Shown piece by piece: positions 36,519-50,831 of a DNA stretch of 64,000 nt (positions are counted from its first letter, which is position 1; each line of letters starts with the position of its first letter). A model generated the notes under the pieces. It did not search any database, was not told the DNA's origin, and saw nothing but the letters and a program-made list of their open reading frames with translations. The position numbers were made by a program, and so were the translations under genes. The stretch covers positions 21,820 through 85,819 of the forward strand of contig CBDCEW010000080.1 in the NCBI GenBank assembly GCA_965215885.1, given 5' to 3'. The stretch is from Candidatus Moanibacter sp. (GTDB lineage Bacteria; Verrucomicrobiota; Verrucomicrobiia; Opitutales; UBA2987).

Positions 36519-36929
36519 TCATATATCGCTTAGACTGAGATGATCCCAAATCCGCAGTCCCCCGATCTGCCGAAAATGGTTGTCGAATGTCACCAGGACA
36601 CTGCCCAACTCAAGACACGAAGCGGCGATCCATACATCATTTATCGGTATCGGCCTGCCCTTCCTCTTCAATTGATCTTTGACGTTTCCAAATAGTTCGG
36701 CCGTATCTTCAGTCGGCCGGTGGAGAGAAACTGTCGGTTTAGTCAGAAACTTCCGTAGGTCCATACGATTCTCTTGCTCTCGCACTCCTCCCTTGAATCC
36801 GAAATACAACTCGCCAAGGACGAAGAGCGGCATGAACACCTCTTCCGCTCCTGCCAAGGCGTCCAATACGCGACTGTCGCCCACTCGGTAGGCGGAATAT
36901 GCGTTCGTATCCAGGACAATCCGGAGCAT
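36519..36929 (-). CDS. vapC: VapC PIN-domain toxin
   Basis: LDTNAY, LGELYFG, IPINDVWIAA, TFDNHF. Confidence 0.9.
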   Translation of the reverse strand: MLRIVLDTNAYSAYRVGDSRVLDALAGAEEVFMPLFVLGELYFGFKGGVREQENRMDLRKFLTKPTVSLHRPTEDTAELFGNVKDQLKRKGRPIPINDVWIAASCLELGSVLVTFDNHFRQIGGLRIWDHLSLSDI

Positions 36930-36944
36930 GCGAAACCAAATGTT

Positions 36945-37208
36945 TCAGACGGTCTTCCAATCCGCCTCGTCAACTTGCTCCAGCTCAGAAACTCGATCAT
37001 TGAAATCAGACGCCTCTTTCTCGGTCCACGTCCCATACTGATCGAGAAATTCCTCCCTATGGTCCACTGGCGCCCTTGGCTTCAACCCCAAAGATGAACG
37101 GAGCAAGCTCTTTACTGTTCGGTTCAGCGAGGTCCCAGCTTGGCGTGCCTTACTGCTCAGCACTCTCGCCAGCTCGTCATCGATCTTGTGAATTGTGATT
37201 GATTTCAT
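36945..37208 (-). CDS. RHH antitoxin (VapB/FitA-like)
   Basis: MKSITIHKIDDEL..L..KA...GTSLN; directly upstream of vapC. Confidence 0.82.
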   Translation of the reverse strand: MKSITIHKIDDELARVLSSKARQAGTSLNRTVKSLLRSSLGLKPRAPVDHREEFLDQYGTWTEKEASDFNDRVSELEQVDEADWKTV

Positions 37209-39264: not shown

Positions 39265-39483
39265 TCCTGTTTAGAGTCCCCATTCGTTTCCAGGCTCCGG
39301 TTGCTGATCAATTCTACCGCGCGGAAGCGTTCCAGATGGCTCTTGGTTTGCCGGTAGGCTGGATCTGATCGTTACCCTTAGCCGTAGCAAGGGAACGCAT
39401 GTGCGCCGTCAGCCGTTACCTGCCGCGATTTCTTGGCTGAAGCATCTATTTGCGAGTTCTTCATTCGTTTGAGGCGATTCCAG

Positions 39484-39705
39484 TCAGTCCGCGATTCTCT
39501 TATAAAACTCGGTTTCTCCTACTCCCGACTCTGGATGCTTTCGCCAGGCCTGATACCGTTCCTCGGCCAACTTCAGCCAACCTTCATCGATTTCATCTAA
39601 TTCCTGATTATTAACACTTTGAAGAAGGTGAGTGGCCAATAATTCCCGATCCTCAGCGGATAGCCGAAGAGCCTTTTCCTCTATTTCCTCTAATTCTTGA
39701 GACAT
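39484..39705 (-). CDS. Putative addiction module antitoxin component
   Basis: IEEKALRLSAEDRELLATHLLQS...IDEGWLKLAEERY. Confidence 0.75.
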   Translation of the reverse strand: MSQELEEIEEKALRLSAEDRELLATHLLQSVNNQELDEIDEGWLKLAEERYQAWRKHPESGVGETEFYKRIAD

Positions 39706-39793
39706 GATTAAAGCTTGGGGCACGTCACCTTTTGAGTCAATGTTGGTTTAACTTGGTAATTCCCCGTCCCGGCTTGCCGGGACGGGGTCGCTG

Positions 39794-39990
39794 ACTTGAC
39801 TCTATTGTCATCGTTCGCTGAGCCCCCGATCCACCAGTAGCAAGGATGTTAGTGGTGGAACCCGTCTTCGTTGCGCGAGCGCAACTACGCCGAGGCGGGC
39901 GGCCCCCATGCCACGCCGTAGCAATTCGCAGCGGGAAATGGACCGCTGCGTAGGCGGGTCCGGGAACGTTTGTTTCAACTTCGTAATGAG
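39794..39990. repeat. About 200-bp dispersed REP-mosaic repeat, copy 2 (inverted)
   Basis: Homolog of 5677-5875. Confidence 0.75.
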
Positions 39991-40056
39991 CAAAGGCAGT
40001 TACGGACTTATTGGCGAAAGAGTTAGATACCCCGCAGCTTGCTGCGGGGAGTGTTC

Positions 40057-40176
40057 GTTAAACACACCTTTTCCCACGTATCCGGAGAAATCGACATCGC
40101 CTTCCAACCCGTCTGAGAATCGCAGCCGAGCGATGTAATTTTCCTTGATTTTGACACTTTCCAGCGAAGATTTCAT
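40057..40176 (-). pseudogene. DUF2442-like N-terminal fragment truncated by a REP
   Basis: MKSSLESVKIKENYIARLRFSDGLEGDVDFSGYVGKGVF, then the palindrome CCCCGCAGCAAGCTGCGGGG. Confidence 0.55.
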
Positions 40177-40221
40177 TTTCTCAGCCTAAGACCTATACGT
40201 TATTTATCCAATATATTCTTC

Positions 40222-40283
40222 GTCCAACGCTAGCCTCACACAAGAGGCCGCAAGGCCGAATTGTGTGTAGGCAATGGTTCGAG
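40222..40283 (-). other. Integron attC site
   Basis: CTCGAAC...GTTGGAC on the minus strand; stem GCCTCACACAA/TTGTGTG(T)AGGC with an extrahelical base; R'' matches the cassette 5' box at 40945-40951. Confidence 0.8.
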
Positions 40284-40295
40284 ATTCTCGCTGAT

Positions 40296-40598
40296 TCAGG
40301 TAACAGCGATCTGCTTGACTTCCCTCTTGATCCGGGCTGCCGCCTCGTCTTCTGCCAAGTCCAGATCGTAATCCATCTGAAGACCAAGCCAGAACTGAGC
40401 CGAGTTACCGTAATAGCGGGATAAACGCAATGCCGTGTCCGCCGTGATCCTGCGTTTGCCCTGAATGATTTCATTGATGCGACGTGGCGAGACCCTTAGG
40501 TTGCGGCCCAGTTGGTTCTGGCTCATGCCCATCGGGTTCAGAAACTCCTCCAAGAGCACTTCACCAGGATGCAGGGGCGGTATATGCTTTTTCCTCAT
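40296..40598 (-). CDS. higA: HigA antitoxin (XRE HTH)
   Basis: HPGEVLLEEFL, RINEIIQGKRRITADTALRL, FWLGLQ. Confidence 0.93.
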   Translation of the reverse strand: MRKKHIPPLHPGEVLLEEFLNPMGMSQNQLGRNLRVSPRRINEIIQGKRRITADTALRLSRYYGNSAQFWLGLQMDYDLDLAEDEAAARIKREVKQIAVT

Positions 40599-40607
40599 TC
40601 TTTCACC

Positions 40608-40889
40608 TCAGTGGTAGTCCGCGATTTCAACGTTTTGCGCGTGATTATCGAACCATTCGAAACAGATGCGCCAGCGGTCATTGATACGAATGCTGTGTTG
40701 TCCTTTCCGATCGCCGGAAGGCCGCTCCAGACGATTCGCGGGTGGAATACGAAGATCCTGCAAGTTCGCACTTCGATTGAGCATCCGTAGCTTCCTGAAC
40801 GCCGCCTTCTGAATATCTTGTGGAAGTTTCCTGGAGTACTGGCGATTGAATAGCTTCTCCGCTTCTTTATCCCGGAAACTTTGAATCAT
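40608..40889 (-). CDS. higB: HigB/RelE-ParE family toxin
   Basis: MIQSFRDKE, DLRIPPANRLE, SIRINDRWRICF, EIADYH. Confidence 0.92.
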   Translation of the reverse strand: MIQSFRDKEAEKLFNRQYSRKLPQDIQKAAFRKLRMLNRSANLQDLRIPPANRLERPSGDRKGQHSIRINDRWRICFEWFDNHAQNVEIADYH

Positions 40890-40898
40890 GCCAGGATT

Positions 40899-40923
40899 TA
40901 TAACGCATAGCGTTATATGTAAA
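40899..40923 (-). promoter_or_regulatory. higBA promoter/operator
   Basis: Palindrome TATAACGC-ATA-GCGTTATA next to a TTTACA -35 box. Confidence 0.6.
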
Positions 40924-40944
40924 GAACAATTCGCTCGTTCTTAT

Positions 40945-41290
40945 CTCGAACGTTTGAGGACAGGTGCGCGATTTATCGCGTAACCTGGTCCGATCTGTTA
41001 TGCGCCGGGCAGATCCGACTGCTCGATGGTAATGTTAACGTCAGAAAGGAAATGACACATGAAGTAAACAAAGTCCAGACCCAGCCCGATGGAGGCGAAG
41101 GGTAGCCGATGGCAAGAGTATCGCAGCGATGAGGGCTCGGAGGAAGCCGGAGGCAAAGACGCGTGCTGACGGTTTGGAAGCAGTGGAAGAACCGCCACTT
41201 ACGGCATGCCACGGCGAAGCCCTTTAGGGCGAAGACGGGACCCGTACGAGTGGTGGTGTGGGAGGGGGGGGCGTCCCTATCCCGATCTGC
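40945..41290 (-). other. Integron attC site interrupted in its R'' box by the intron
   Basis: CTCGAAC...GGACAGGTGCGCGAT-tt-ATCGCGTAACCTGGTCC...GTT|intron|CTGC. Confidence 0.75.
41000..41286 (+). mobile_element. Internally deleted group IIC-attC intron remnant (287 nt, no ORF)
   Basis: 5' ATGCGCCGGGCA (GTGCG-like); domain 5 GAACCGCC...GTACGAGTGGTGGTG with CGC triad; domain 6 ending CCCTATCCCGAT; IEP remnant WKQWK; antisense to the cassettes, after GTT. Confidence 0.78.
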
Positions 41291-41468
41291 AGGTTTGTTG
41301 TTCCGGTTCATCTTGAATTCCATCGATATTGTCCTTCCGTCCAATAGAGAGCGGCCTGCCTCACTAGCCGCAGCGTCACGATGCAAATCAGCTGACAGCT
41401 CGTATCGCGCACTCATTTCATGGGATACCAAGTCGACAAATTCGTTCCGATTTGTCTGCGTGTCTGTA

Positions 41469-42383
41469 TCATGCTTCGCCCCCCCCTCGGGCGCTGTGCC
41501 GTGAGTCGACATGACCGCTTCCCGGACGGTGGATCGGACCGCGGTTCTTCACCATCCTGACGAACCAGGCGATGGCAATAGCCGCCGACAGGTGTTTCAG
41601 GGTATGTCCGCTTACGATCCCTCCGGTTCCGGCGAAAATAGCCTCGTCTTTGGACTCAAGTTGCTTGGCAAGAATGTAGAAGACGATAACGAGCAGCAGG
41701 TTGATCGATCCTGTATAGCGGGCTGGAAACAGGACCATCATCGCCGCAACGGCAAAGATTGGGTACGACTGAACAAAGGCGTAAGGTCTGAGATCCCCTC
41801 TCCCCTGAGATTCTGTCCAGGACCAGTAAAAAACGGTAGCCGCACCAATGATCAAAGCAGGCATCAAGGCCAGCAATCCAACCTTGATGCTGATCCGCTC
41901 CATGATCACCGAGATGAAGAAGGCGACAAATCCAATCGTCATGGGCAAGCGGTCCCAAACCAATGTTCCATTATTTGGAGAGAGATGATAGTAGGCCGAC
42001 CCGACACTCACCAGGGTCGTCCCTGCGAAAAACACGAGATAGGGAATCTTCTCCAATGGATCCAGAAACCGCCTTTCCTGCCCCTCTTTATTCAGGACGA
42101 TCACGAGGCCCCAGATTCCAACGATGAGAAAGGCCAAGTTCGAGAGGACATCCAATCCGTTGGTGATCGCGAGGATCCGCCTCTGGTCTGCAAAATTGTG
42201 GTAGCTCAGGTCCTGTGGCAGCGGAGACTTGGATCCCCACCACCAAGCGACGGCCAGGGTAATCAAGCCGAGGAGGATGTAGCGAGTTCTTTGACTAGTA
42301 TACAGCACAAGCGTTACGTTTTTTTCTGTATTCACTCTCGTGTTGCAGACCATGGTTCGAAGTCTTCTTGTTCGATTCGGCAA
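41469..42383 (-). CDS. Ceramidase-like (alkaline phytoceramidase) membrane protein
   Basis: PQDLSYHNFADQR, SNLAF, GSAYYH, WDRLPM, GDLRPY, SGHTLKH; start uncertain. Confidence 0.8.
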   Translation of the reverse strand: MPNRTRRLRTMVCNTRVNTEKNVTLVLYTSQRTRYILLGLITLAVAWWWGSKSPLPQDLSYHNFADQRRILAITNGLDVLSNLAFLIVGIWGLVIVLNKEGQERRFLDPLEKIPYLVFFAGTTLVSVGSAYYHLSPNNGTLVWDRLPMTIGFVAFFISVIMERISIKVGLLALMPALIIGAATVFYWSWTESQGRGDLRPYAFVQSYPIFAVAAMMVLFPARYTGSINLLLVIVFYILAKQLESKDEAIFAGTGGIVSGHTLKHLSAAIAIAWFVRMVKNRGPIHRPGSGHVDSRHSARGGGEA

Positions 42384-42597
42384 TGTTAAAATGGCAACGG
42401 ATGAAAGGACGGCAACGGATGGGGATCAAGGATTCCCACACCCGAAGCGGTTTCGTCTCCGCTTTCTGGCGGCTTAGATCGGTCTTCCAAAAATATCCGC
42501 TGCCATCCTTTCATCCGTTGCAAAATCCTCTTTCTACTTTCCGGGTTTCCGGGACTGCGAGTCTTTCTCTAGACGGAACTCAAAACCTTGTAAGTTT

Positions 42598-44080
42598 GCC
42601 TCGTCAGCAGAATCTGTGGGTTATTTCGGGTTCAGGCAAGTCGCCCATGGTATGAAATAGGGCGATCTTAAGCACTTCGAAGCTCTTAAAGCCGTATGCT
42701 TTTCTGATAGTGAGATTTATATTGCGGTTAAAGCCCTCCACAATGCCGCAGGAAAAGGCCTTTTTGGCCCGAAACCAGTTGAGGATGAGCGGCTCGTGTT
42801 TGCGCACCGAGCGCACGAACCTTTTGATCGGTTTGAGGCGCGAACGCATGGCGCGCGTGCACCATTTTTTCAGATACCATTGGGCCCAGTAGGGACTTTT
42901 ATAATGCCACAAGAGCTGAAAGCTCTCCTTTAGTAGATAGGCCCGCACGCTCTTCAGATCGTATTGGAGCACCTCCTTGAGGCGGATCTGTTGGGTGGGG
43001 GTGAGATTTTGCGGATTTTTCAAGAAACAGTATTTGCTTTTGACCAGCACGTTGATGTAGCCGTCCCGTTGCAATCGCCTGGCTTCCGCAGCACGAATCT
43101 CATTGAGGGCCTTGTTCAGGTTGGCTACCAAGTGGAAGCGATCGAGGATGTGCAGCGCCTGGGGTGCCTTTTTCTTGATCACTTTGAGGTAAGGCTTCCA
43201 CAGATCCGAGCAGACGTAGAGGATCTGGCTGCTCTTTTGCGCTCCCAATTCCCAGAAAAAACGCAAGAGCGATTTTACGTTGCGCTTATTGAATACGCCC
43301 AATAGCCGCCGCCGCCCCTCGTCAAGCTGGTAGACCACGGTGAGATAGTGATGGCCTCGATGATACTGCACCTCATCGACTCCGATCGCCTCAATCCCGC
43401 TCATATCGCGCCGTTTGAGCCCCCAACGCACCATCGCCTCGACCGACTCGAAGACGTTGCGCCAGTTCGTGCGAAAAACCCTTGCCGTCTCTTCCCAGCT
43501 CAAGCGCCTCGCCCACTGGGCCAGAAACCATTGCATTGGCCAACTCAGATGACTCTTGCCCTTGGCCCAGGGCACCTCTTCGACCTTCACCCCGCACCGC
43601 CGGCAATTGACCCGCCGCATGCGGTAACGAAAATACACCTTCATCCCCCACAAGGGCACAAATTCAAAATGCCTCGCCTCGCTCATGTGGTCGTAGCCGC
43701 TGGCCGTCCGGCCACACCCCGAACAGCACACCCGACTATTCTTGCGCGGCTCAATCTGCACCACAATCGCCTCCACCGATTTCACCATTTCCATACTCGC
43801 CTTTGCGTAAACAAAGCTCTTGAGCCAATAGCACCGATTCAGTAGCGTTTTGATGAGCACTGGGTCCTCCGTGTTCAGGATGTATTTTCGGTACTACTTT
43901 CATCCTCGGAACGGCCCGGTGCTTCAACCTTTCAATCCCATATGCAAAGAAAACACCGACCAGCCCCTCCGGCTGTGGAGGAGCGGGATTCAGGGCAGCG
44001 CCCTGACTTCTCCTTGTGCTCACCGACTCTATTTCCTCTTGTAAGCGACGTTACCCACCCACAGATTCTGCTGTAGACCC
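42598..44080 (-). mobile_element. ISL3-family element
   Basis: TIRs sharing CAGCAGAATCTGTGGG; 8-bp duplication GTAAGTTT at 42590-42597 and 44081-44088. Confidence 0.93.
42604..43860 (-). CDS. ISL3 transposase
   Basis: Zn finger CSGC...CRRC, IGVDE, CSDLW, LDRFH, VEGFN. Confidence 0.93.
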   Translation of the reverse strand: MLIKTLLNRCYWLKSFVYAKASMEMVKSVEAIVVQIEPRKNSRVCCSGCGRTASGYDHMSEARHFEFVPLWGMKVYFRYRMRRVNCRRCGVKVEEVPWAKGKSHLSWPMQWFLAQWARRLSWEETARVFRTNWRNVFESVEAMVRWGLKRRDMSGIEAIGVDEVQYHRGHHYLTVVYQLDEGRRRLLGVFNKRNVKSLLRFFWELGAQKSSQILYVCSDLWKPYLKVIKKKAPQALHILDRFHLVANLNKALNEIRAAEARRLQRDGYINVLVKSKYCFLKNPQNLTPTQQIRLKEVLQYDLKSVRAYLLKESFQLLWHYKSPYWAQWYLKKWCTRAMRSRLKPIKRFVRSVRKHEPLILNWFRAKKAFSCGIVEGFNRNINLTIRKAYGFKSFEVLKIALFHTMGDLPEPEITHRFC

Positions 44081-44120
44081 GTAAGTTTTAGTATGTAAGG
44101 GGTCATTCCGGGCTCATTTC

Positions 44121-44211
44121 TTCGAACGCTAAAGCGGAGGCATGCCGGGCCAATCGGAATCACTTAAACCCGGGCGGATAAACCGGCATTGCCTCCCGCG
44201 AATTGTTGGGC
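44121..44211 (-). other. Integron attC site (91 bp)
   Basis: GCCCAAC...GTTCGAA on the minus strand; homologous to 45603-45693 and 45986-46075. Confidence 0.8.
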
Positions 44212-44221
44212 GATTGAAGTT

Positions 44222-44443
44222 TCAAGCGTAGGCCAGTTTTCCTCTCGGCTTCGGAACTTCCCGACCCAGTTCTTTCGCTGTTTCAATCCATTCGGAGATG
44301 ACCTTCTCAGCATTCTCCACCGCCTCGACGTAACTTTGCCCGTCAGCCATACATCCTGGCAGTTCCGGCACCTCGACCACATATGCCTCGTCCTTATCGC
44401 TCCAGTAAATGATCAATTCGTATCTACTTTTCATCTTCTTCAA
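44222..44443 (-). CDS. hicB: HicB antitoxin
   Basis: YELIIYWSDKDEAYVVEVPELPGCMADG...EWIETAKELGREVPKP. Confidence 0.9.
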   Translation of the reverse strand: MKKMKSRYELIIYWSDKDEAYVVEVPELPGCMADGQSYVEAVENAEKVISEWIETAKELGREVPKPRGKLAYA

Positions 44444-44862
44444 CCAGTCCGTATTTGGCTATCAGTGCCCTTACTTGCTTAACCTGATAGGCTTTGGCCT
44501 TTCCAGCTTTTGGCTGCAGATTCAGGATTTCGTCGATTCCTTCTTTGAAGAATATGTGATGGCTTCCATTGATTCGCAACGAAAATCCAAGTTTCACTAG
44601 CCCGCATATTTCACACACTTCGTAGCGAGACTGCGGAGGTTGTCGCGGATCAAGGGCTTACCAAAGTCCGGCGGGTGACGGCGTGTTGGAATACGTGGAA
44701 GTCGGCGGACGAAGGAAGTCCTTGAGGCGCTGTGGCATCCGCAGTTGGAGCAGATGGCTTGTGAAATTTGCGGGCTAGGATCCGTCGCACATCCCGGAAT
44801 GCGATATTCTGATCCGAAGATCCCGACAAGATCATTCTGATGGTGCGGTCAACCTTGGCCAC
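44424..44862 (-). pseudogene. hicA: HicA toxin disrupted by the 178-bp MITE
   Basis: MAKVDRTIRMILSGSSDQNIAFRDVRRIL|VKLGFSLRINGSHHIF...KAYQVKQV rejoins in frame when the MITE is removed. Confidence 0.85.
44597..44778. mobile_element. 178-bp MITE with CTAG duplication, copy 2
   Basis: CTAG-CCCGCATATTTCACA...TGTGAAATTTGCGGG-CTAG. Confidence 0.88.
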
Positions 44863-44919
44863 GAATCAGAATCGTAATTGTCCACGCCGATCAGATCGAG
44901 GATTTTCTAATCCGTGGCC

Positions 44920-44977
44920 GCCCAACATCCTAGGTCACCGGCGCTAGACGCGTCCGGTGCACCCTTTATTGTTATGC
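44920..44977 (-). other. Integron attC site (58 bp)
   Basis: GCATAAC (contains the upstream stop codon)...GGTGCACCGG/CCGGTGACC...GTTGGGC. Confidence 0.82.
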
Positions 44978-45352
44978 CACGATTTGCCTTTGATCGTCGA
45001 TCATGTCTTCAGGCTGATAGATGCCGAAACCTCCGCCTGCATCCACCAGAAGCCATCCGGTGTCAGGCATCAAAGCATCGTATCCATCATCCATCGAGAA
45101 TTCAGCGCCGCCGAAACCTCTGCTCTCGGAAAACGAGTACGCTGGTTGGCCTCTCTGAGCATCACTCACGGATGTGTTGGGAAGCCCCGTGCGAAAACAA
45201 TCACCAAACGCGTGATAAAGATCCCCAAGAAATCGCTTCTGGCCTTTGGGGCGTAAAATGAGATCACAATACCTCGCTGCCCTACGCGGATCGAGCGTCT
45301 GACGCAGAAATCTATCGAGAACTTCGATCGCGTTCATCTGCCAACACAACAA
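44972..45352 (-). CDS. Hypothetical cassette protein
   Basis: ORF whose stop lies inside the attC R'' box. Confidence 0.6.
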   Translation of the reverse strand: MLCWQMNAIEVLDRFLRQTLDPRRAARYCDLILRPKGQKRFLGDLYHAFGDCFRTGLPNTSVSDAQRGQPAYSFSESRGFGGAEFSMDDGYDALMPDTGWLLVDAGGGFGIYQPEDMIDDQRQIVA

Positions 45353-45355
45353 GGT

Positions 45356-45586
45356 TCAAGCTTTGGCAAACTCATCCTGTAATCCCTCGAGAAACCGATT
45401 GTAGTCACCAATCGAACAAAGGTGTGACTCGTAAAGACACTGTTTCGAATTACGATCGAAGACCTGAACATACGATGATGTGTCGAAATAAACTTCTAAA
45501 TCACGCTTCGTGAACGATGCGGGGCTTTCTTTCGCCCAACCGCAATCCAACAGAACGCTGATCGCCTTATTGTAGAGGGTCGCCAT
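45356..45586 (-). CDS. Hypothetical cassette protein
   Basis: ATG 17 nt after the attC R' box. Confidence 0.6.
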   Translation of the reverse strand: MATLYNKAISVLLDCGWAKESPASFTKRDLEVYFDTSSYVQVFDRNSKQCLYESHLCSIGDYNRFLEGLQDEFAKA

Positions 45587-45602
45587 TCGTTAGTTTTTCA
45601 GG

Positions 45603-45693
45603 GCATAACGTCGGAACGGAGGCATGTCGGGCCAAGCTAAATATATTGAAACGGGCGGCGTAAACCGGAATTGCTTCTCGCGGTTTGTTCGAA
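45603..45693 (-). other. Integron attC site (91 bp)
   Basis: TTCGAAC...GTTATGC; R' equals the box at 44971-44977. Confidence 0.8.
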
Positions 45694-45985
45694 GTTCTCG
45701 ATTTGGATACGGCAAAGATTTGATTGCAACGGATCTAAGCACGGCAACGGATAGGGATCAAGGCTTCCTCTGCCCCACTACGGTTTCCCCAAATCTCTAT
45801 CGTCGCCATGGGCACCTTCTAAAGAATTCCGCTGCTGTCCTTTCATCCGTTGCACTATCTCTTACTGTTTTTCCCGGAATCGAGAACCTTACGAACTATA
45901 TTACGTAGAGTTTCATCTTTCTGCCCGTCATATTCTTGCCATCTCTCTACGATCTCCCCCTGCTCTCCGATTAAGTCTTTGGCTC

Positions 45986-46075
45986 TTCGAATGCTCAAGT
46001 CCAGCGATGTCGGCCCAATGGCTCTGCTTTGAAACTGCGGGGCAAACCGGCATTCGCTGGGAGGCCTGGTTCGGG
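45986..46075 (-). other. Integron attC site with degenerate R' (ATT instead of GTT)
   Basis: CCCGAAC...CCAGCGAATG/CATCGCTGG...ATTCGAA. Confidence 0.68.
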
Positions 46076-46078
46076 GCC

Positions 46079-46258
46079 TTATCTATTTTGCAATTTCTTG
46101 ATGATTCTGCGCGCGAGCCACTCGTTGATTTCCGAGTGTCTCGGAACGGCCTGGGCAACCTTCGTCTCCGGATTCTGATACCAGTCGTGATTTCCGCCAT
46201 GGCGAATGAAGACCGCACCCGATTCCGTGATTCTACGGATCAGCGCACGTCGCTTCAT
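46079..46258 (-). CDS. hicA: HicA toxin (59 aa, absent from the ORF track)
   Basis: MKRRALIRRITESGAVFIRHGGNHDWYQNPETKVAQAVPRHSEINEWLARRIIKKLQNR*; ATGA overlap with the upstream antitoxin. Confidence 0.85.
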   Translation of the reverse strand: MKRRALIRRITESGAVFIRHGGNHDWYQNPETKVAQAVPRHSEINEWLARRIIKKLQNR

Positions 46259-46446
46259 CCAACCTCAAGCTCGGCATGCCGCCTGACATTGGGAATCATT
46301 CCAGAGACCAAATCCTTGTGTAAATCCGAAAGATGCTCCTTCAAATCCTCAAGACTCGTTCCTTGGGTAACGTAATCCGGAAACTCGTCCAGATAACCCA
46401 GCCAGAAGCCTTCGTCCTGCCAGTAGGTAAACCCGGTAGTTTTCAT
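46255..46446 (-). CDS. hicB: Short HicB-like antitoxin
   Basis: YWQDEGFWLGYLDEFPDYVTQGTSLEDLKEHL; promoter TTGACG-17-CAAAAT at 46456-46484. Confidence 0.8.
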   Translation of the reverse strand: MKTTGFTYWQDEGFWLGYLDEFPDYVTQGTSLEDLKEHLSDLHKDLVSGMIPNVRRHAELEVG

Positions 46447-46503
46447 AGTTGCGCCATTTTGTCACCCCGGCGGTATGACGTCAATCGTCGTTTCATTCCA
46501 GGC

Positions 46504-46568
46504 CTCGAACGTCATGTATCATGATTTTGGCGTGCCAGCGACAAATACCATGCATGCAATTGTTCGCA
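46504..46568 (-). other. Integron attC site (65 bp)
   Basis: TGCGAAC...CATG/CATG stem...GTTCGAG, 3 nt after the stop of 46572-47090. Confidence 0.75.
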
Positions 46569-46571
46569 ATC

Positions 46572-47090
46572 TTAGTCTTCCACAGGTTGCCGTTTCCACT
46601 TCATGAACTCACTCATGGATGGGGCAACTGTTTCAATTTCTCCCGTTTCGTGGTCATGCCACAAAACAGGTGGGTCTATAACTTTTGGATCTATCAATAA
46701 TTCGTTTCCACCGCCATCGTCTGCAAAGGCGAAATACTTCCCACAGCCCGGCCACGGACTGTGAAGATTCCCTGCATCCGCAGGATTGTAGAAACAGATA
46801 TAAATAGGGTCATTTCCGTTAGGTGGCAAAACCTCAATGTCAGATAGTGCAAGTTCTTCTGTGTTGCTGTAGAGATCGCGCAATGCATGAGGAAGTGTGC
46901 AGTCAAAATGTTTTGCGACAGCACCGAGATCGGGAGATGAAATTCGTTTCTGAAAATGTCTGCCATATGCTTTGGCTTCTTCAGGAGATGGAGAGCGATA
47001 GAGAAGTTTGTCTCGAATCCACAAAATCAGAAACGGCAAGACGATAAAGATTACGACTAGCGCAACGACTGTTATGAATGTGTCTCTCAT
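46572..47090 (-). CDS. SMI1/KNR4 (SUKH) family protein with an N-terminal TM helix; first cassette
   Basis: LPHALRDLY...FAFADDGGGNELLID...VLWHDHETGEIETVAPSMSEFM. Confidence 0.75.
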   Translation of the reverse strand: MRDTFITVVALVVIFIVLPFLILWIRDKLLYRSPSPEEAKAYGRHFQKRISSPDLGAVAKHFDCTLPHALRDLYSNTEELALSDIEVLPPNGNDPIYICFYNPADAGNLHSPWPGCGKYFAFADDGGGNELLIDPKVIDPPVLWHDHETGEIETVAPSMSEFMKWKRQPVED

Positions 47091-47098
47091 GTTCTTTC

Positions 47099-47270
47099 AG
47101 CGAACATACAATCGTACACCAGTTGCTGTTTACTTAACTGCTGATAGCCCCGATATGTTGTAGGCTTTTGGTTGTTTGATGGTTAACTCGGTTGAAACAG
47201 CGTTTAACGTCCGGTAATATGCAACCTGTCGTCAATATTGTAATATGCGACAGGTCGCATATTCCTGGAA
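47099..47270 (-). promoter_or_regulatory. attI-like site and upstream AT-rich control region
   Basis: GTTCGCT core (matches the first cassette R'' TGCGAAC at 6/7) with no attC stem upstream; 16-bp inverted repeat AATATGCRACCTGTCG at 47216-47263. Confidence 0.5.
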
Positions 47271-47340
47271 TATCGGGAAAAAGCAACAGTAAAGGCTTGC
47301 AATTTGAGTAAGATAGTGGACATTTGTTCACTTAGTTGTC

Positions 47341-47585
47341 GAAGGTCGAAGGTCGAAGGTCGAAGGTCGAAGGTCGAAGGTCGAAGGTCGAAGGTCGAAG
47401 GTCGAAGGTCGAAGGTCGAAGGTCGAAGGTCGAAGGTCGAAGGTCGAAGGTCGAAGGTCGAAGGTCGAAGGTCGAAGGTCGAAGGTCGAAGGTCGAAGGT
47501 CGAAGGTCGAAGGTCGAAGGTCGAAGGTCGAAGGTCGAAGGTCGAAGGTCGAAGGTCGAAGGTCGAAGGTCGAAGGTCGAAGGTC
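47341..47585. repeat. Perfect heptamer microsatellite (GAAGGTC)x35
   Basis: 35 uninterrupted copies counted by hand. Confidence 0.97.
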
Positions 47586-47893
47586 GAGCGCCTGATCCCT
47601 GCTCGTCGGGAAAATTCCAACGTCGAAACTGACAGGGGCCAACCACGATGAATTTCCTCAGCGAGGTGAAGCGTAATGGCTGGTGGATTTCTGGTTCAGT
47701 GGAGACTTAATTGGCGCCAAAAAGGGGCGTAGATAGCGGAGGGGAGGACTGTACCCTTTTGGCTGAGGAATTTCTGGAGCAACGGAACGGCAAGGAGAAG
47801 TGCTACGGTTCAGAATCGAGGACGAGAACGGGAACGAGGACGATTCTGACGCCTGACGAAGAAGGTCGGGGGTTGTTCTGTCTGGATAGTAGA

Positions 47894-49222
47894 ATGAACA
47901 AAGCGATACCGTATGCCCGCCAGTGGATCGACGAAGATGATATCGTGGCGGTGACGGAGGTATTGCGGTCGGACACTGTCACTCAGGGGAGCGCGTTGGG
48001 TCGATTCGAGGCCGGGCTGGCGAGGGCGACGGGGGCGGCCCATGCGGTAGCGGTGTCGAACGGGACGGCTGCGCTGCACCTGGCCTGTGCGGTATTGGGG
48101 CTTAAGAGGGGGGCGACGGGAGTGACATCGCCGATCACTTTTGCGGCGAGCGCGAACTGTATGCGTTATTGTGGAGCGGAAGTGGAGTTTGCCGATGTCG
48201 ATCCGGTGACGGGTCTGATGGATCCGGAGAGTCTCGATGGAGTCTTGTGGCGGTTGCGGGGGAGCGGGCAGCCGCCCGGGGTAGTCGTAGCGGTGTCGCT
48301 GGCGGGAAGGCCAATGCATCTTGTCGAGATTCGCGAAGTGACCGATCGCTTCGGATTCCGGTTGATCGAAGACGCGGCGCACAGCTTGGGCGCGTTCACT
48401 GGGAACGGGAAAGGGAGAATTGCAAGTGGGTCGTGCCGGCAGAGTGATGCCGCTATCCTGAGTTTTCATCCCGTAAAGCAAATCTGCTGTGGGGAGGGTG
48501 GGGCACTCTTGACGAATAGCCGGGAGGATGCGGAACGCGCCCGCCGCTTGCGGAGCCATGGGATACAGTTGGAGGCCTCCCAATCGCTTCCTTTAGGCTC
48601 GGAGATGCCCTCCTGGATTCGGGAGCAGGTCGAATTGGGTTGGAATTATCGTATGCCCGATATCCAGGCCACTCTGGGGCTATCGCAGTTAAACCGGCTG
48701 GCCGGATTCCTGCGCCGACGCCGGGAGCTGGCAGAGAGGTATCGGAAAGTTCTTAGCCGGGAACCTTTCACGGGATTTATTCGGCTACCTCCGGTCGAGG
48801 AGGGTCATGCCTACCATCTGTTTGTTATTCATTTTCCGAGCGAAAAGGCGCGGAATGAGGCGCACGATTACCTGAAAGCGAAGGGCATAGCGACTCAGGT
48901 GCACTATTTACCGGTGTACCGGCATCCCTACTACAGGAATCGCATGGGAAGGCTGCGCATGCCCGGGGCGGAGACATATTTTCGCGGCTGTCTCAGTATT
49001 CCCCTATACCCAATGCTGACGGATGATGAACAGGATCGGGTGATCGAGGCGCTAAGTGAGTTCGTACAGAAGAGGGGATTTTTACAGGAGGAAACCCCTT
49101 CGATGGGGCTCCCGCCTTCGCATAAAACTTCGGCGAGGCACGGCAGGGTAGGAGAGAGAATTGAGGGGAAGAGTTGCAGAGTGTGCAGTGAACCCATCCA
49201 AGCCGGGACTTCGTCCCGCTGA
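47894..49222 (+). CDS. pseC: UDP-4-amino-4,6-dideoxy-N-acetyl-beta-L-altrosamine transaminase
   Basis: IPYARQWIDEDDI, VSNGTAALH, IEDAAHSLG, SFHPVKQI, GWNYRM; pse context. Confidence 0.88.
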   Translation: MNKAIPYARQWIDEDDIVAVTEVLRSDTVTQGSALGRFEAGLARATGAAHAVAVSNGTAALHLACAVLGLKRGATGVTSPITFAASANCMRYCGAEVEFADVDPVTGLMDPESLDGVLWRLRGSGQPPGVVVAVSLAGRPMHLVEIREVTDRFGFRLIEDAAHSLGAFTGNGKGRIASGSCRQSDAAILSFHPVKQICCGEGGALLTNSREDAERARRLRSHGIQLEASQSLPLGSEMPSWIREQVELGWNYRMPDIQATLGLSQLNRLAGFLRRRRELAERYRKVLSREPFTGFIRLPPVEEGHAYHLFVIHFPSEKARNEAHDYLKAKGIATQVHYLPVYRHPYYRNRMGRLRMPGAETYFRGCLSIPLYPMLTDDEQDRVIEALSEFVQKRGFLQEETPSMGLPPSHKTSARHGRVGERIEGKSCRVCSEPIQAGTSSR

Positions 49223-49225
49223 GCG

Positions 49226-50831
49226 CATACGCGTAAACCTTATTTTCGCAACTTAGTCAGATTCAAAGACTTGCGAGGTATTTTGCGGCGGAGTATGAGG
49301 GTGTCTCTATCCTCGAGGTTCCACTCCATTTGTTCGCCCTTTTCTATTTGCTTCGTTTCGACCACAGCGGTGAGGAAATTCGCAGTTGAGCGAGTGCATT
49401 TTGGCCGGGTTATCTTCTCTACTTTTACCGGCTACCCCATTTTTTTTCACTTTGGCAGCATTTTATACTGTACATTCGTTCACATATAGGATTTATCCTT
49501 CGGATGCAAAGTATAAAAAAAGCTGATTGTATCCGTCAAACCTTCCGTAAGTTGAACCTCACAGCCCTCGCTAAACAGAGTGGTTTTAGAGAGAGGAAAT
49601 CGCGCAAGATCTCCCCTCTGAACTTTGTTTTGGCTTTGCTGGCGATGGCTTCTAAGGGGGCCTTGTCCCTTGGCAAAGAAGCCGAGCTTATTGGATTCTT
49701 AGCCAACCGCACCATTTCCAGACAAGCGGTCCAAAAGTGCGCCAAAAAAGCCACCGCTTTTATGACCTTAGTGCTCCTGAGGCTTTTAGAACTTAAAGCT
49801 TATGGGCCTGTGGGCAGAGCTGTTCCAAATTGCATGAGGAGCTTTGAACGGGTTCTCATTGCCGACAGCACTTCGATTGGCTTGCCTAAGGTCCTGGCCC
49901 CCTTCTTCCCCGGAGCGTCCAATCAGACAGGCTCCAAACAGGCTCAACTGAAGATTCAGGCCTATTACGATCTGCGCAATGAATCCTTCGTTGACTTCAG
50001 CCTCAGTAGCTTCCGAAAAAACGATCAGGCTGCTTCCAAAGACATTCTCGCTCTCGCTCAACCCAACGACTTGATCCTGCGCGACTTAGGCTATTTTGTC
50101 CTCGATGTCTTTAAGCAACTCGATCAGCGCGGCTGCTTCTTTGTGAGTCGTTTGAAAACCGGCACTTGCCTTTTAGCCAACGAAGGCGATGAAGAGCTCG
50201 ATCTACGCAAACTTTTACGTGGCCAAAAGCTTCTCGATATGCCCGTTCGGGTGGGTAAAAAAGCCAAGCTTCCGGTTCGTCTGATCGCCGTCAAACTCCC
50301 TCAGAAGGTGGCCCATAAACGCCGCCGCGAGCATAGACAAAACCGCGACAATAGACTTCGATATACCAGCCGCACCAGCTTCCTTCTCGGTTTCCAAATC
50401 TTTATTACAAACCTCCATCAGAAAGACTTTAGCCCTAAGCAGATTCTGAGCTTTTACGGGCTTCGCTGGCGCATCGAAATTTTCTTTAAGGCCTTTAAGC
50501 AACATCTTAATCTCGGTCAGGCCAAAGAGACTACTCCCTACCAGGTTGAGCTTCTTATCTACGCCCGTCTCATCCTCATTACCCACTTACTCAACTTCGT
50601 CTATGGTCCCCTTAGACACTATTCGAATACCAGTTTGTCCTCTCCTCTGAGTATCCTTAAATTCTCCTACTGGTTTGGCTTCTTTGCTCCCTACTTCTTC
50701 ATCCTCTCTCACATTCCCAAAGATCAGATCATCCCCCGATGGCTCAAACAAATCCCCAAACACTGCACCTATGAAAAGCGTTCTCGACTTGATTTCCTCT
50801 CTTGTTTCTTCTCCTTAGGTTAACGCAAATG
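49226..50831 (+). mobile_element. IS4-family element copy 2, intact (1606 bp)
   Basis: TIRs CATACGCGTAAACCT / CATTTGCGTTAACCT (rc); flanks CGCTGAGCG / CGCTTAGCG. Confidence 0.92.
49504..50823 (+). CDS. IS4-family transposase
   Basis: DST, DLGY, Y..RW.IE..FK (YREK) motifs. Confidence 0.92.
   Translation: MQSIKKADCIRQTFRKLNLTALAKQSGFRERKSRKISPLNFVLALLAMASKGALSLGKEAELIGFLANRTISRQAVQKCAKKATAFMTLVLLRLLELKAYGPVGRAVPNCMRSFERVLIADSTSIGLPKVLAPFFPGASNQTGSKQAQLKIQAYYDLRNESFVDFSLSSFRKNDQAASKDILALAQPNDLILRDLGYFVLDVFKQLDQRGCFFVSRLKTGTCLLANEGDEELDLRKLLRGQKLLDMPVRVGKKAKLPVRLIAVKLPQKVAHKRRREHRQNRDNRLRYTSRTSFLLGFQIFITNLHQKDFSPKQILSFYGLRWRIEIFFKAFKQHLNLGQAKETTPYQVELLIYARLILITHLLNFVYGPLRHYSNTSLSSPLSILKFSYWFGFFAPYFFILSHIPKDQIIPRWLKQIPKHCTYEKRSRLDFLSCFFSLG

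Follow-up and report, generated by a model that had tools for sequence, protein, structure and literature searches.

This study concerns an array of integron cassettes in a 64,000-nucleotide (nt) stretch of the genome of Candidatus Moanibacter sp. (the window; positions 21820-85819 of contig CBDCEW010000080.1, here C80, GenBank assembly GCA_965215885.1). The data suggest that the minus strand of 39385-47332 very probably represents the remains of a chromosomal integron that has lost its integrase gene, that is, a cluster of attC sites lacking an integron integrase (CALIN), with eight cassettes and a decayed tail. The array would have arisen as an integron whose intI gene was deleted, and the sequence at its head, which we call the leader, is read as the putative former attI site. 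Loss of intI is preferred over a stray fragment because the array still starts with this conserved leader.

The minus strand of 39900-47300 was read and seven candidate attC sites of 58-91 nt were excised. The three sites of 90-91 nt are homologous to each other, as the initial annotation of the window had stated, with a mean column identity of 78%. A covariance model (R1) was built from these three sites only, because a MAFFT alignment of all seven misaligned the short ones. Run against its own genome, R1 gave at least 19 matches at E <= 1 (the best 150 of 256 candidates being scored). These include C105:319971-322117 on the minus strand, near a partial intI (C105:327378-327905, plus strand), and positions 106300 and 122123 of C100, also minus, near a complete intI (C100:128287-129216, plus strand). 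An unfiltered search of the 80 kb surrounding the C100 and C105 intI genes returned 15 sites at E <= 0.31, all on the minus strand and divergent from intI. Their boxes include GCCTAAC, GTCTAAC, GTTAGGC and GTTATGC, which are canonical attC boxes, as well as others, and neighbouring sites obey the own-box rule described below. A second model, R2, was trained on these 15 sites, which lie outside the window, and was run over all 64,000 bases on both strands with filters off. There were 14 matches at E <= 10, of which the eight best all lie on the minus strand at 39385-46568, within 7.2 kb:

46568-46504, minus strand, candidate site attC1: weak match, 12.9 bits, E 0.82 window-wide and 0.11 locally
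46075-45986, minus strand, candidate site attC2: 34.7 bits, E 3e-6
45693-45603, minus strand, candidate site attC3: 35.2 bits, E 2.3e-6
44977-44920, minus strand, candidate site attC4: 21.7 bits, E 0.0053
44211-44121, minus strand, candidate site attC5: 58.5 bits, E 3.6e-12, the best-scoring site
41003-40945, minus strand, candidate site closing cassette 7: 37.9 bits, E 4.9e-7
40283-40222, minus strand, candidate site attC7: 29.5 bits, E 6e-5
39438-39385, minus strand, degenerate site, newly found: 16.6 bits, E 0.095 window-wide and 0.012 locally

Six of these sites, all minus and between 40222 and 46075, have E <= 0.0053. The remaining six matches have E 1.4 to 9, and there is no R2 match with E < 1 in the rest of the window. 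Of the seven candidate sites excised, six thus have E <= 0.0053 and one is weak. The initial annotation had also counted seven attC-like hairpins, but the sixth of its hairpins, at 42361, proved to be a half-site only (42361-42355), which does not score as an attC by R2 (3.1 bits). An Rfam scan of the window at gathering thresholds gave no matches, there being no fitting attC family. A rule-based scan for AAC...GTT hairpins was dropped, as it gave 2423 raw and 2274 collapsed matches in 6.36 Mb, with both strands alike.

An attC site consists of an R'' box (..AAC) and an R' box (GTT..), an L''/L' stem and a variable centre, and is 57-141 nt long. All seven sites are imperfect palindromes with R''/R' boxes, a stem and a length of this kind. 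Over the nine local matches aligned by R2, 85.1% of the cells pair, in comparison with 64.5 +/- 2.5% after shuffling and 28.8-34.5% when the partner is slid. The AAC/GTT bases are retained at all three pairs in seven of the nine rows and at two pairs in every row, and 12 of the 18 pairs vary on both sides, as expected of compensatory changes, in what is a model-fitted alignment. There are two one-base bulges on the R''/L'' arm (the 5' arm of the top strand) in the R2 structure, and the window sites align to them. This arm is the source of the extrahelical bases on the bottom strand. When the bottom-strand folds of four minus-strand sites were compared, the 3' arm had two more unpaired bases than the 5' arm. 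Of the seven bottom strands, five fold as single-stranded DNA with greater stability than 100 mononucleotide shuffles (z -2.8 to -3.7; attC1 has -10.4 kcal and z -3.1), and the folds of two of the 90-91-nt sites are poor.

In a cassette that entered as a circle, the bases just behind the G|TT crossover point complement the R'' of the attC that belongs to the cassette. Across seven cassettes of the array, the opening box complements the R'' of the closing site in 26 of 28 distal positions (the own-box rule). This match is not due to chance because, when the partners are permuted, 26 of 28 is reached in just 4 of 5040 arrangements; pairing of R'' with R' in the same site gives 9 of 28. All the box strings quoted in the initial annotation were located at their positions. 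For the site at 41003-40945 it had used the R' box and had missed both the R'' (GCATAAC) and the ceramidase-like cassette that the site closes. The cassettes would have entered as circles by recombination at G|TT of a recombination site, and it is because of this mode of entry that the six opening bases of each complement its own closing R''.

There is no match to the integrase family TIGR02249 on C80, and a tblastn search of the whole contig with the IntI of C100 gave a best E of 0.11. No intI lies beside the array; the divergent neighbour is a gene for a DegT-type aminotransferase. An integron array with no integrase in the window had been proposed before, and the R2 sites on one strand and the absence of intI from C80 bear this out. 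Because there is an attC array and no intI in the window or on the contig, the array is a CALIN by the definition given in the part of Cury et al. (2016; PMC4889954) considered here. Like the CALINs described in those sections, it has at least two attC on one strand, no intI nearby and an IntI elsewhere in the genome, its cassettes are mostly of unknown function with no resistance genes, and an insertion sequence (IS) is present. Unlike them, it keeps a conserved head element that occurs in five copies and is a candidate primary integration site. CALINs are common, with 279 in the genome set of that study, whose sections on origins name loss of intI as a possible origin (iii) and also list rearrangement; attI outside the known classes were not searched there, the sequences being unknown.

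A search of the genome for intI, which the initial annotation had suggested, gave ten matches to TIGR02249, one of them above the cut-off. This is the complete gene at C100:128287-129216 (432 bits, the cut-off being 265), which is divergent from an attC array on the other strand. Its protein contains the typical integron-integrase stretch and a C-terminal YTHV motif. Partial genes lie elsewhere: a fragment at C100:115001-115303, within the array of the complete gene, covers residues 5-105 at 90% identity to it, and the fragment at C105:327378-327905 covers residues 142-317 at 45% identity. These fragments beside the complete C100 gene show that the genome has held at least three integrase types. 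Genome-wide, the R2 matches at E <= 0.01 number at least 39, spread over 11 contigs (the best 150 of 2101 candidates being scored), and 14 of these matches are training sites of the model. There are clusters on C4, C49, C91, C47, C100, C105 and C80, several of them at contig ends. The initial view from the window is therefore incomplete, given a complete intI and many attC clusters elsewhere. Among the 31 genomes of the order, this one included, four have an intI above the cut-off. Excision and shuffling of the window cassettes by attC x attC recombination is probably still possible, with the complete C100 IntI as the predicted catalyst in trans.

Between the complete intI and its array, about 200 bp upstream of intI, there is a 1.7-kb IS with a 460-amino-acid (aa) open reading frame (ORF) (C100:126290-128080). 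The C100 integron, the only complete one, may have had its attI or promoter region disrupted by this IS. The same IS also abuts the C69 copy of the leader.

The leader was found five times in the genome. The copies and the boxes at which they end are as follows:

47102-47332 of the window (C80), minus strand, array leader and candidate attI: about 200-230 bp, ending exactly at the first crossover box
47099-47105 of the window, minus strand, first R'-type box GTTCGCT at the junction of leader and cassette 1: 6/7 against the reverse complement of the R'' of attC1, distal 3/4
C98:40883-41113, leader copy with 92% identity over 231 bp: box GATCTAC, 7/7 with the R'' of the next attC, distal 4/4
C105:289898-290086, leader copy: box GTTCGAA, 7/7 with the R'' of the next attC, distal 4/4
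C104:161587-161781 and C69:19168-19362, leader copies: box GTTCGCC, 6/7 and distal 4/4 with the R'' GGCGCAC when this is read in the register of attC7; mismatched in R2's own register, four bases off

The C69 locus is a duplicate of the C104 locus. Homology between the copies stops at the GTT of the first box in every case, and different genes follow it. A chance match of the boxes at C98 is unlikely because the GATCTAC core is unusual. Four GTYGYATRTT-like 10-mers lie in the leader, three of them direct and one inverted, and the last of the direct ones overlaps the crossover GTT. The leader is not scored as an attC by R2, which also finds no attC upstream of it. When R2 was run over the other four loci (78,988 bases, filters off, E <= 1), there were only four matches, every one of them 260-1080 nt downstream of a leader and on the same strand. 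Additionally, about 110 nt upstream of the C98 leader and on the opposite strand there is a remnant of an IntI C terminus, 23 codons that correspond to residues 293-315 of the C100 protein with 65% identity (E 5.6e-5). In a complete integron, attI is the primary site of integration, lying between intI and the first cassette, and the cognate IntI recombines it. The leader resembles the attI of class 1-3 integrons in being a non-hairpin sequence at the head of an array, in ending in a GTT crossover point, in having short repeats upstream of it and in having a divergent intI remnant at one copy. It differs from them in having no sequence likeness to anything searched and no cognate integrase gene left. 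Judging from these sequence features, we lean towards reading the leader as an attI that belongs to a third type of integron, the integrase of which would have been lost from all five copies.

Several observations weigh against an integron that lost its intI and kept its attI. The IntI remnant is 23 residues long and occurs at one of the five leader copies, the same search of the other copies having found none. No likeness to the leader (nhmmer at E <= 10, or the 10-mer motif) was found upstream of intI on C100 or C105 or in three relatives. Searches outside this genome did not find the leader. A 28-nt pattern from it gave no matches in genome contigs; a 23-nt pattern matched once, in apparently coding DNA that shows neither more likeness nor an intI, which we regard as a chance match; and a 19-nt pattern gave 25 matches in metagenome contigs, none of which is a whole leader by nhmmer and three of which match about 55 nt, without an IntI match. 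The repeats of the leader lie 110-150 nt from the crossover, a larger distance than in attI1, and on C104 the stop codon of a housekeeping-type gene immediately precedes the leader. Turning to the attC sites, attC1 scores weakly (E 0.82), and the bottom strands of 46075-45986 and 45693-45603, when folded, are no more stable than their shuffles (z -0.5 and -0.3). R2 is a home-made model whose training sites were picked via a model built on window sites, and its E-values are rough; the test is therefore not fully independent, the independent part being that the training sites sit in arrays beside intI genes. The alignment used for the pair counts was fitted to the model, and one of its nine rows is a weak plus-strand match. 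A promoter and terminator scan gave counts equal to those in shuffles (promoter-like sites, 6 against a mean of 6.0). The activity of the C100 IntI on the window sites is a prediction. Finally, the contig joints used in the population comparison below are supported by sides of 31-71 letters at 90% likeness, and paralogous cassettes elsewhere may account for some of them.

The leader may alternatively be no attI at all. It could be a small mobile or regulatory repeat, such as a promoter module or an element like a miniature inverted-repeat transposable element (MITE), or a preferred secondary target of a trans-acting integrase, and we consider this an unlikely explanation that nevertheless deserves weight. 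The genome is rich in MITE-like repeats, the leader occurs in five copies with the one on C104 right behind a housekeeping-type gene, an intI remnant is missing from four of the five copies, and cassette insertion driven by an integrase outside att sites has been reported in the part of a preprint considered here (bioRxiv 10.1101/2022.09.11.507474). However, the homology of the leader ends at the crossover GTT in every copy and the cassettes that follow obey the own-box rule, the odd GATCTAC pair included. The C98 copy has its intI remnant in the classical divergent position, and neither a target duplication nor terminal inverted repeats were seen in the alignment of the leaders.

A more far-reaching proposal, which we put forward only tentatively, is that the leader would mark a family of integron platforms that are non-autonomous, with at least five copies, all lacking an integrase, in this genome. 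Each would retain a functional attI-type site composed of the four 10-mers and would capture cassettes with an integrase acting in trans. The window array would then be the largest satellite integron rather than a dead remnant.

An origin of the array as part of the C100 or the C105 integron, separated from its intI by rearrangement or by draft assembly and never a platform of its own, is improbable. The genome does hold complete and partial intI genes and at least 39 attC-type matches on 11 contigs, with several clusters at contig ends, and rearrangement is among the CALIN origins in the sections of Cury et al. (2016; PMC4889954) referred to above. The array, however, is located inside an 85.8-kb contig with ordinary genes on both sides, and the leader heads four other cassette units, is absent from the C100 and C105 integrons and has no attC upstream of it. 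An integron in its own right that has lost its integrase gene is the reading under which we describe the array, the cassettes of which are arranged as follows:

46504-47104, minus strand, cassette 1: SMI1/KNR4 (SUKH) gene 46572-47090, closed by attC1 46504-46568
45986-46509, minus strand, cassette 2: 63-aa ORF 46255-46446, HicA gene 46079-46258, attC2 45986-46075 (90 nt)
45603-45991, minus strand, cassette 3: 47-aa ORF of doubtful reality, 130-nt REP-like (repetitive extragenic palindromic) hairpin 45725-45854, attC3 45603-45693 (91 nt)
44920-45608, minus strand, cassette 4: ORFs of 76 aa (45356-45586) and 121 aa (44972-45337), closed by attC4 44920-44977
44121-44925, minus strand, cassette 5: MITE-like repeat 44597-44780, hicA 44424-44618, hicB 44222-44443, attC5 44121-44211 (91 nt)
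42350-44126, minus strand, cassette 6, gene-less and broken: ISL3-family IS 42598-44080, hairpin 42391-42522, orphan R''/L'' half-site 42355-42361
40945-42349, minus strand, cassette 7: gene for a ceramidase-like membrane protein 41469-42351, attC 40945-41003
40222-40950, minus strand, cassette 8: higB 40608-40889, higA 40296-40598, attC7 40222-40283; boxes 7/7
39385-40227, minus strand, decayed tail: DUF2442-like remnant 40000-40176, MITE-like repeat at about 39750-40040, antitoxin-like ORF 39484-39723, degenerate attC 39385-39438

The region 39300-47330 was compared with Logan contigs of four public runs, and parts not covered in a single run were not counted as absent unless a contig bridges them. 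Taken together, these contigs place the differences between related populations at cassette borders or no more than a few bases away; each single contig joint is moderate evidence. Run X3, which is from another study and has long pieces near-identical to the window, has 40 extra bases at the 42361 half-site. Rebuilt from alignment tables, the X3 site is a complete 63-nt attC with the R' box GTTCTGC that folds like its paralogue attC7 (bottom strand, -15.7 kcal). It follows that 40 nt between two short direct repeats have been deleted from the window copy, and this destroyed the attC of cassette 6. Cassette 7 in X3 opens with GTTCTGC, which is 6/7 against the reverse complement of its closing R''; because the opening box agrees with the closing R'', the ceramidase-like gene is a cassette of its own.

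Run X6, from another study and a few percent divergent, has a contig that joins 44123 (in the R' of attC5) to 42349, so that cassette 6 with its IS (1773 bases) is absent. Another X6 joint connects attC7, at 40233, to 39370, and the tail (862 bases) is absent. The higBA cassette is also set before a hairpin cassette in an X6 contig, across 35 other letters with a GTTCGAA box. Runs X5 and X9 have contigs that lack 110-155 bases at the MITE-like repeat at about 39750-40040. Contigs from the RNA libraries of run X9 cover higA, higB, the second hicAB and the leader, and DNA may occur in such libraries. A DNA search with 17 kb over the 31 genomes, which include no second genome of the same genus, returned IS and repeat matches only and no conserved locus.

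That the hairpins are terminators or REP-type repeats whose boxes match by chance is extremely improbable: there are many hairpin repeats in the genome and the rule-based scan is unspecific (2274 collapsed matches), but R2, trained beside intI, finds sites down to E 3.6e-12 on one strand only, covariation is present, the box rule (26 of 28) is reached by 4 of 5040 permutations, and populations differ at cassette borders.

The array is meanwhile eroding, with IS and MITE insertions, the deletion of one attC, broken pairs in another and truncation of the tail. Decay had been recognized in the initial annotation, and the ISL3 element, two MITE-like repeats, the deleted attC, the attC with four broken pairs and the degenerate tail site are in agreement with it. 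The 1483-bp ISL3 element (DDE_Tnp_ISL3, E 1.4e-69) splits cassette 6 and is flanked by an 8-bp target duplication, AAACTTAC, at 44081-44088 and 42590-42597. A 45-80-nt stretch inside this element, upstream of the transposase (43930-44010), recurs with 83-93% identity at many positions in five genomes that are related but belong to another genus, frequently at the ends of contigs, and is probably a conserved end of related IS elements. Cassette 6 is related to cassette 3 (about 70% identity over 184 nt). Both contain a near-perfect 130-nt hairpin just upstream of R'' (42391-42522 and 45725-45854), with about -36 to -40 kcal as DNA. The 30-nt arm of these hairpins recurs, dispersed, on more than 20 contigs of the genome, and the hairpin is a REP-like element that is not specific to integrons. 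Cassette 3 is probably gene-less. The site that closes it, attC3, has four mismatched stem pairs, and the R' of attC2 starts with A instead of G.

The 184-bp MITE-like repeat of cassette 5 (44597-44780) ends in terminal inverted repeats of 19 nt and is spread over 71 contigs in about 140-177 copies. It overlaps the 5' end of hicA (its first codons), and a 70-aa ORF at 44650-44862 inside the element is probably not a gene. The MITE-like repeat of the tail has about 45-50 copies in the genome, together with shorter deletion forms, and cuts off the DUF2442-like ORF.

The cargo listed in the initial annotation was confirmed in part. SMI1/KNR4, HicA, a HicB-like protein, HigB and HigA are above their cut-offs; the second HicA and DUF2442 are below, and the ceramidase-like gene, the ISL3 element, the MITE-like repeats and the hairpin cassettes had been missed. 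The protein of cassette 1 matches Pfam PF09346 (SMI1_KNR4; E 3.5e-10), over the curated cut-off. HicA of cassette 2 has 38.5 bits to HicA_toxin, over the cut-off, and its 63-aa partner has no family at E <= 0.01 (DUF1902 only, E 0.035) and is possibly HicB-like. In cassette 5, HicB is over the cut-off (HicB_lk_antitox, 46.5 bits) and HicA is below (21.5 bits against 27). Each of the two putative HicAB pairs has one member above its cut-off; the partner in the first has no family, and the HicA of the second is below its cut-off and overlapped by the MITE-like repeat. The protein of cassette 7 is exactly at the cut-off for Ceramidase (Pfam, 32.5 bits). The two adjacent genes of cassette 8 are predicted from their sequences to encode a HigBA pair, with PF05015 (HigB-like_toxin) at 75.5 bits and TIGR02607 (HigA) at 108.7 bits, both over the cut-offs. 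The DUF2442 remnant of the tail has 18.4 bits (cut-off 23.9), and the antitoxin-like ORF at 39484-39723 matches Unstab_antitox with 28.9 bits and has no toxin partner.

Cassette 4 carries the two ORFs that had been put forward as defence candidates, and this is not supported: neither has a match in Pfam, NCBIfam or PADLOC, and PADLOC gave no families at E <= 0.01 for any of the seven cassette proteins. A search of a protein atlas with these ORFs gave no usable match. The 76-aa protein has a single cluster of homologues, at 96% identity. The second ORF had been listed as 126 aa from a TTG at 45352; homologues align from query residue 6, and the ORF starts at the sixth codon, with a protein of 121 aa. 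Its family has 76 representative clusters of about 120 aa, and none of the 40 aligned members has a Pfam family. The AlphaFold2 model of the 121-aa protein is confident (predicted local distance difference test score, 95.6; predicted template modelling score, 0.89), and Foldseek found no match to it in the PDB at E <= 0.001. A wide structural search gave as its best match a CdiI immunity chain (5t86_I) with Z 4.9 and a root mean square deviation of 3.5 over 90 residues, the next match having Z 2.9. This modelled likeness is a weak lead, below the level of trust given in the guide of the search tool. An immunity-type role, which the structural model hints at weakly, would fit beside the SUKH protein of cassette 1, SUKH proteins being, as we understand it, immunity proteins of polymorphic toxin systems. 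Cassette 4 thus presents a confidently folded 121-aa family of 76 clusters without a Pfam family or a clear solved fold.

The array is flanked as follows:

47332-47643, no strand assigned, 7-nt tandem repeat of about 44 copies between the leader and the DegT-type gene, beginning exactly where homology to the C98 leader copy stops
47711-49222, plus strand, DegT-type aminotransferase gene (Pfam DegT_DnrJ_EryC1, E 9.4e-91)

Further out on this side, at 49504-50823, there is an IS4-type transposase gene (DDE_Tnp_1) in a 1.63-kb element of which the genome has at least eight more copies (99-100% identity). A pair of a VapC-like PIN toxin and a FitA-like ribbon-helix-helix antitoxin is encoded at 36519-37208, beyond a gamma-glutamyltranspeptidase gene and outside the array, with no attC by R2.

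Toxin-antitoxin (TA) cassettes in arrays are already well studied, and a TA-bearing CALIN is a known kind of element. By analogy with the Vibrio arrays treated in the sections of two papers considered here (Sci Adv 2024, PMC13108822; PLoS Genet 2024, PMC11023631), the higBA pair, and perhaps the hic pairs, would penalize loss of the region. The TA cassettes would, on the same analogy, carry their own expression signals, as no Pc promoter can be named. According to those sections, the superintegron of Vibrio cholerae shares with the window array type II TA cassettes, gene-less cassettes and homologous attC. Unlike it, the window array has no adjacent integrase, is small (8-10 cassettes) and is visibly eroding, and its attC are of at least two types (58-65 and 90-91 nt) in contrast with one uniform repeat.

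As a TA-bearing CALIN the array adds little. It is a well-resolved example of how an integron dies, showing loss of the integrase with retention of the head site, invasion by IS and MITE, and microdeletion of an attC of which a sister population has the intact form. The only part that might be new is the attI-like leader in multiple copies, the literature not having been searched specifically for multi-copy or orphan attI. To our knowledge, the attI sites of environmental integrons are almost unknown. If the leader does work as an attI with an integrase acting in trans, integrase-less arrays would be active platforms for the capture of cassettes and not just reservoirs, and attI sites would be recognizable by comparison inside one genome.

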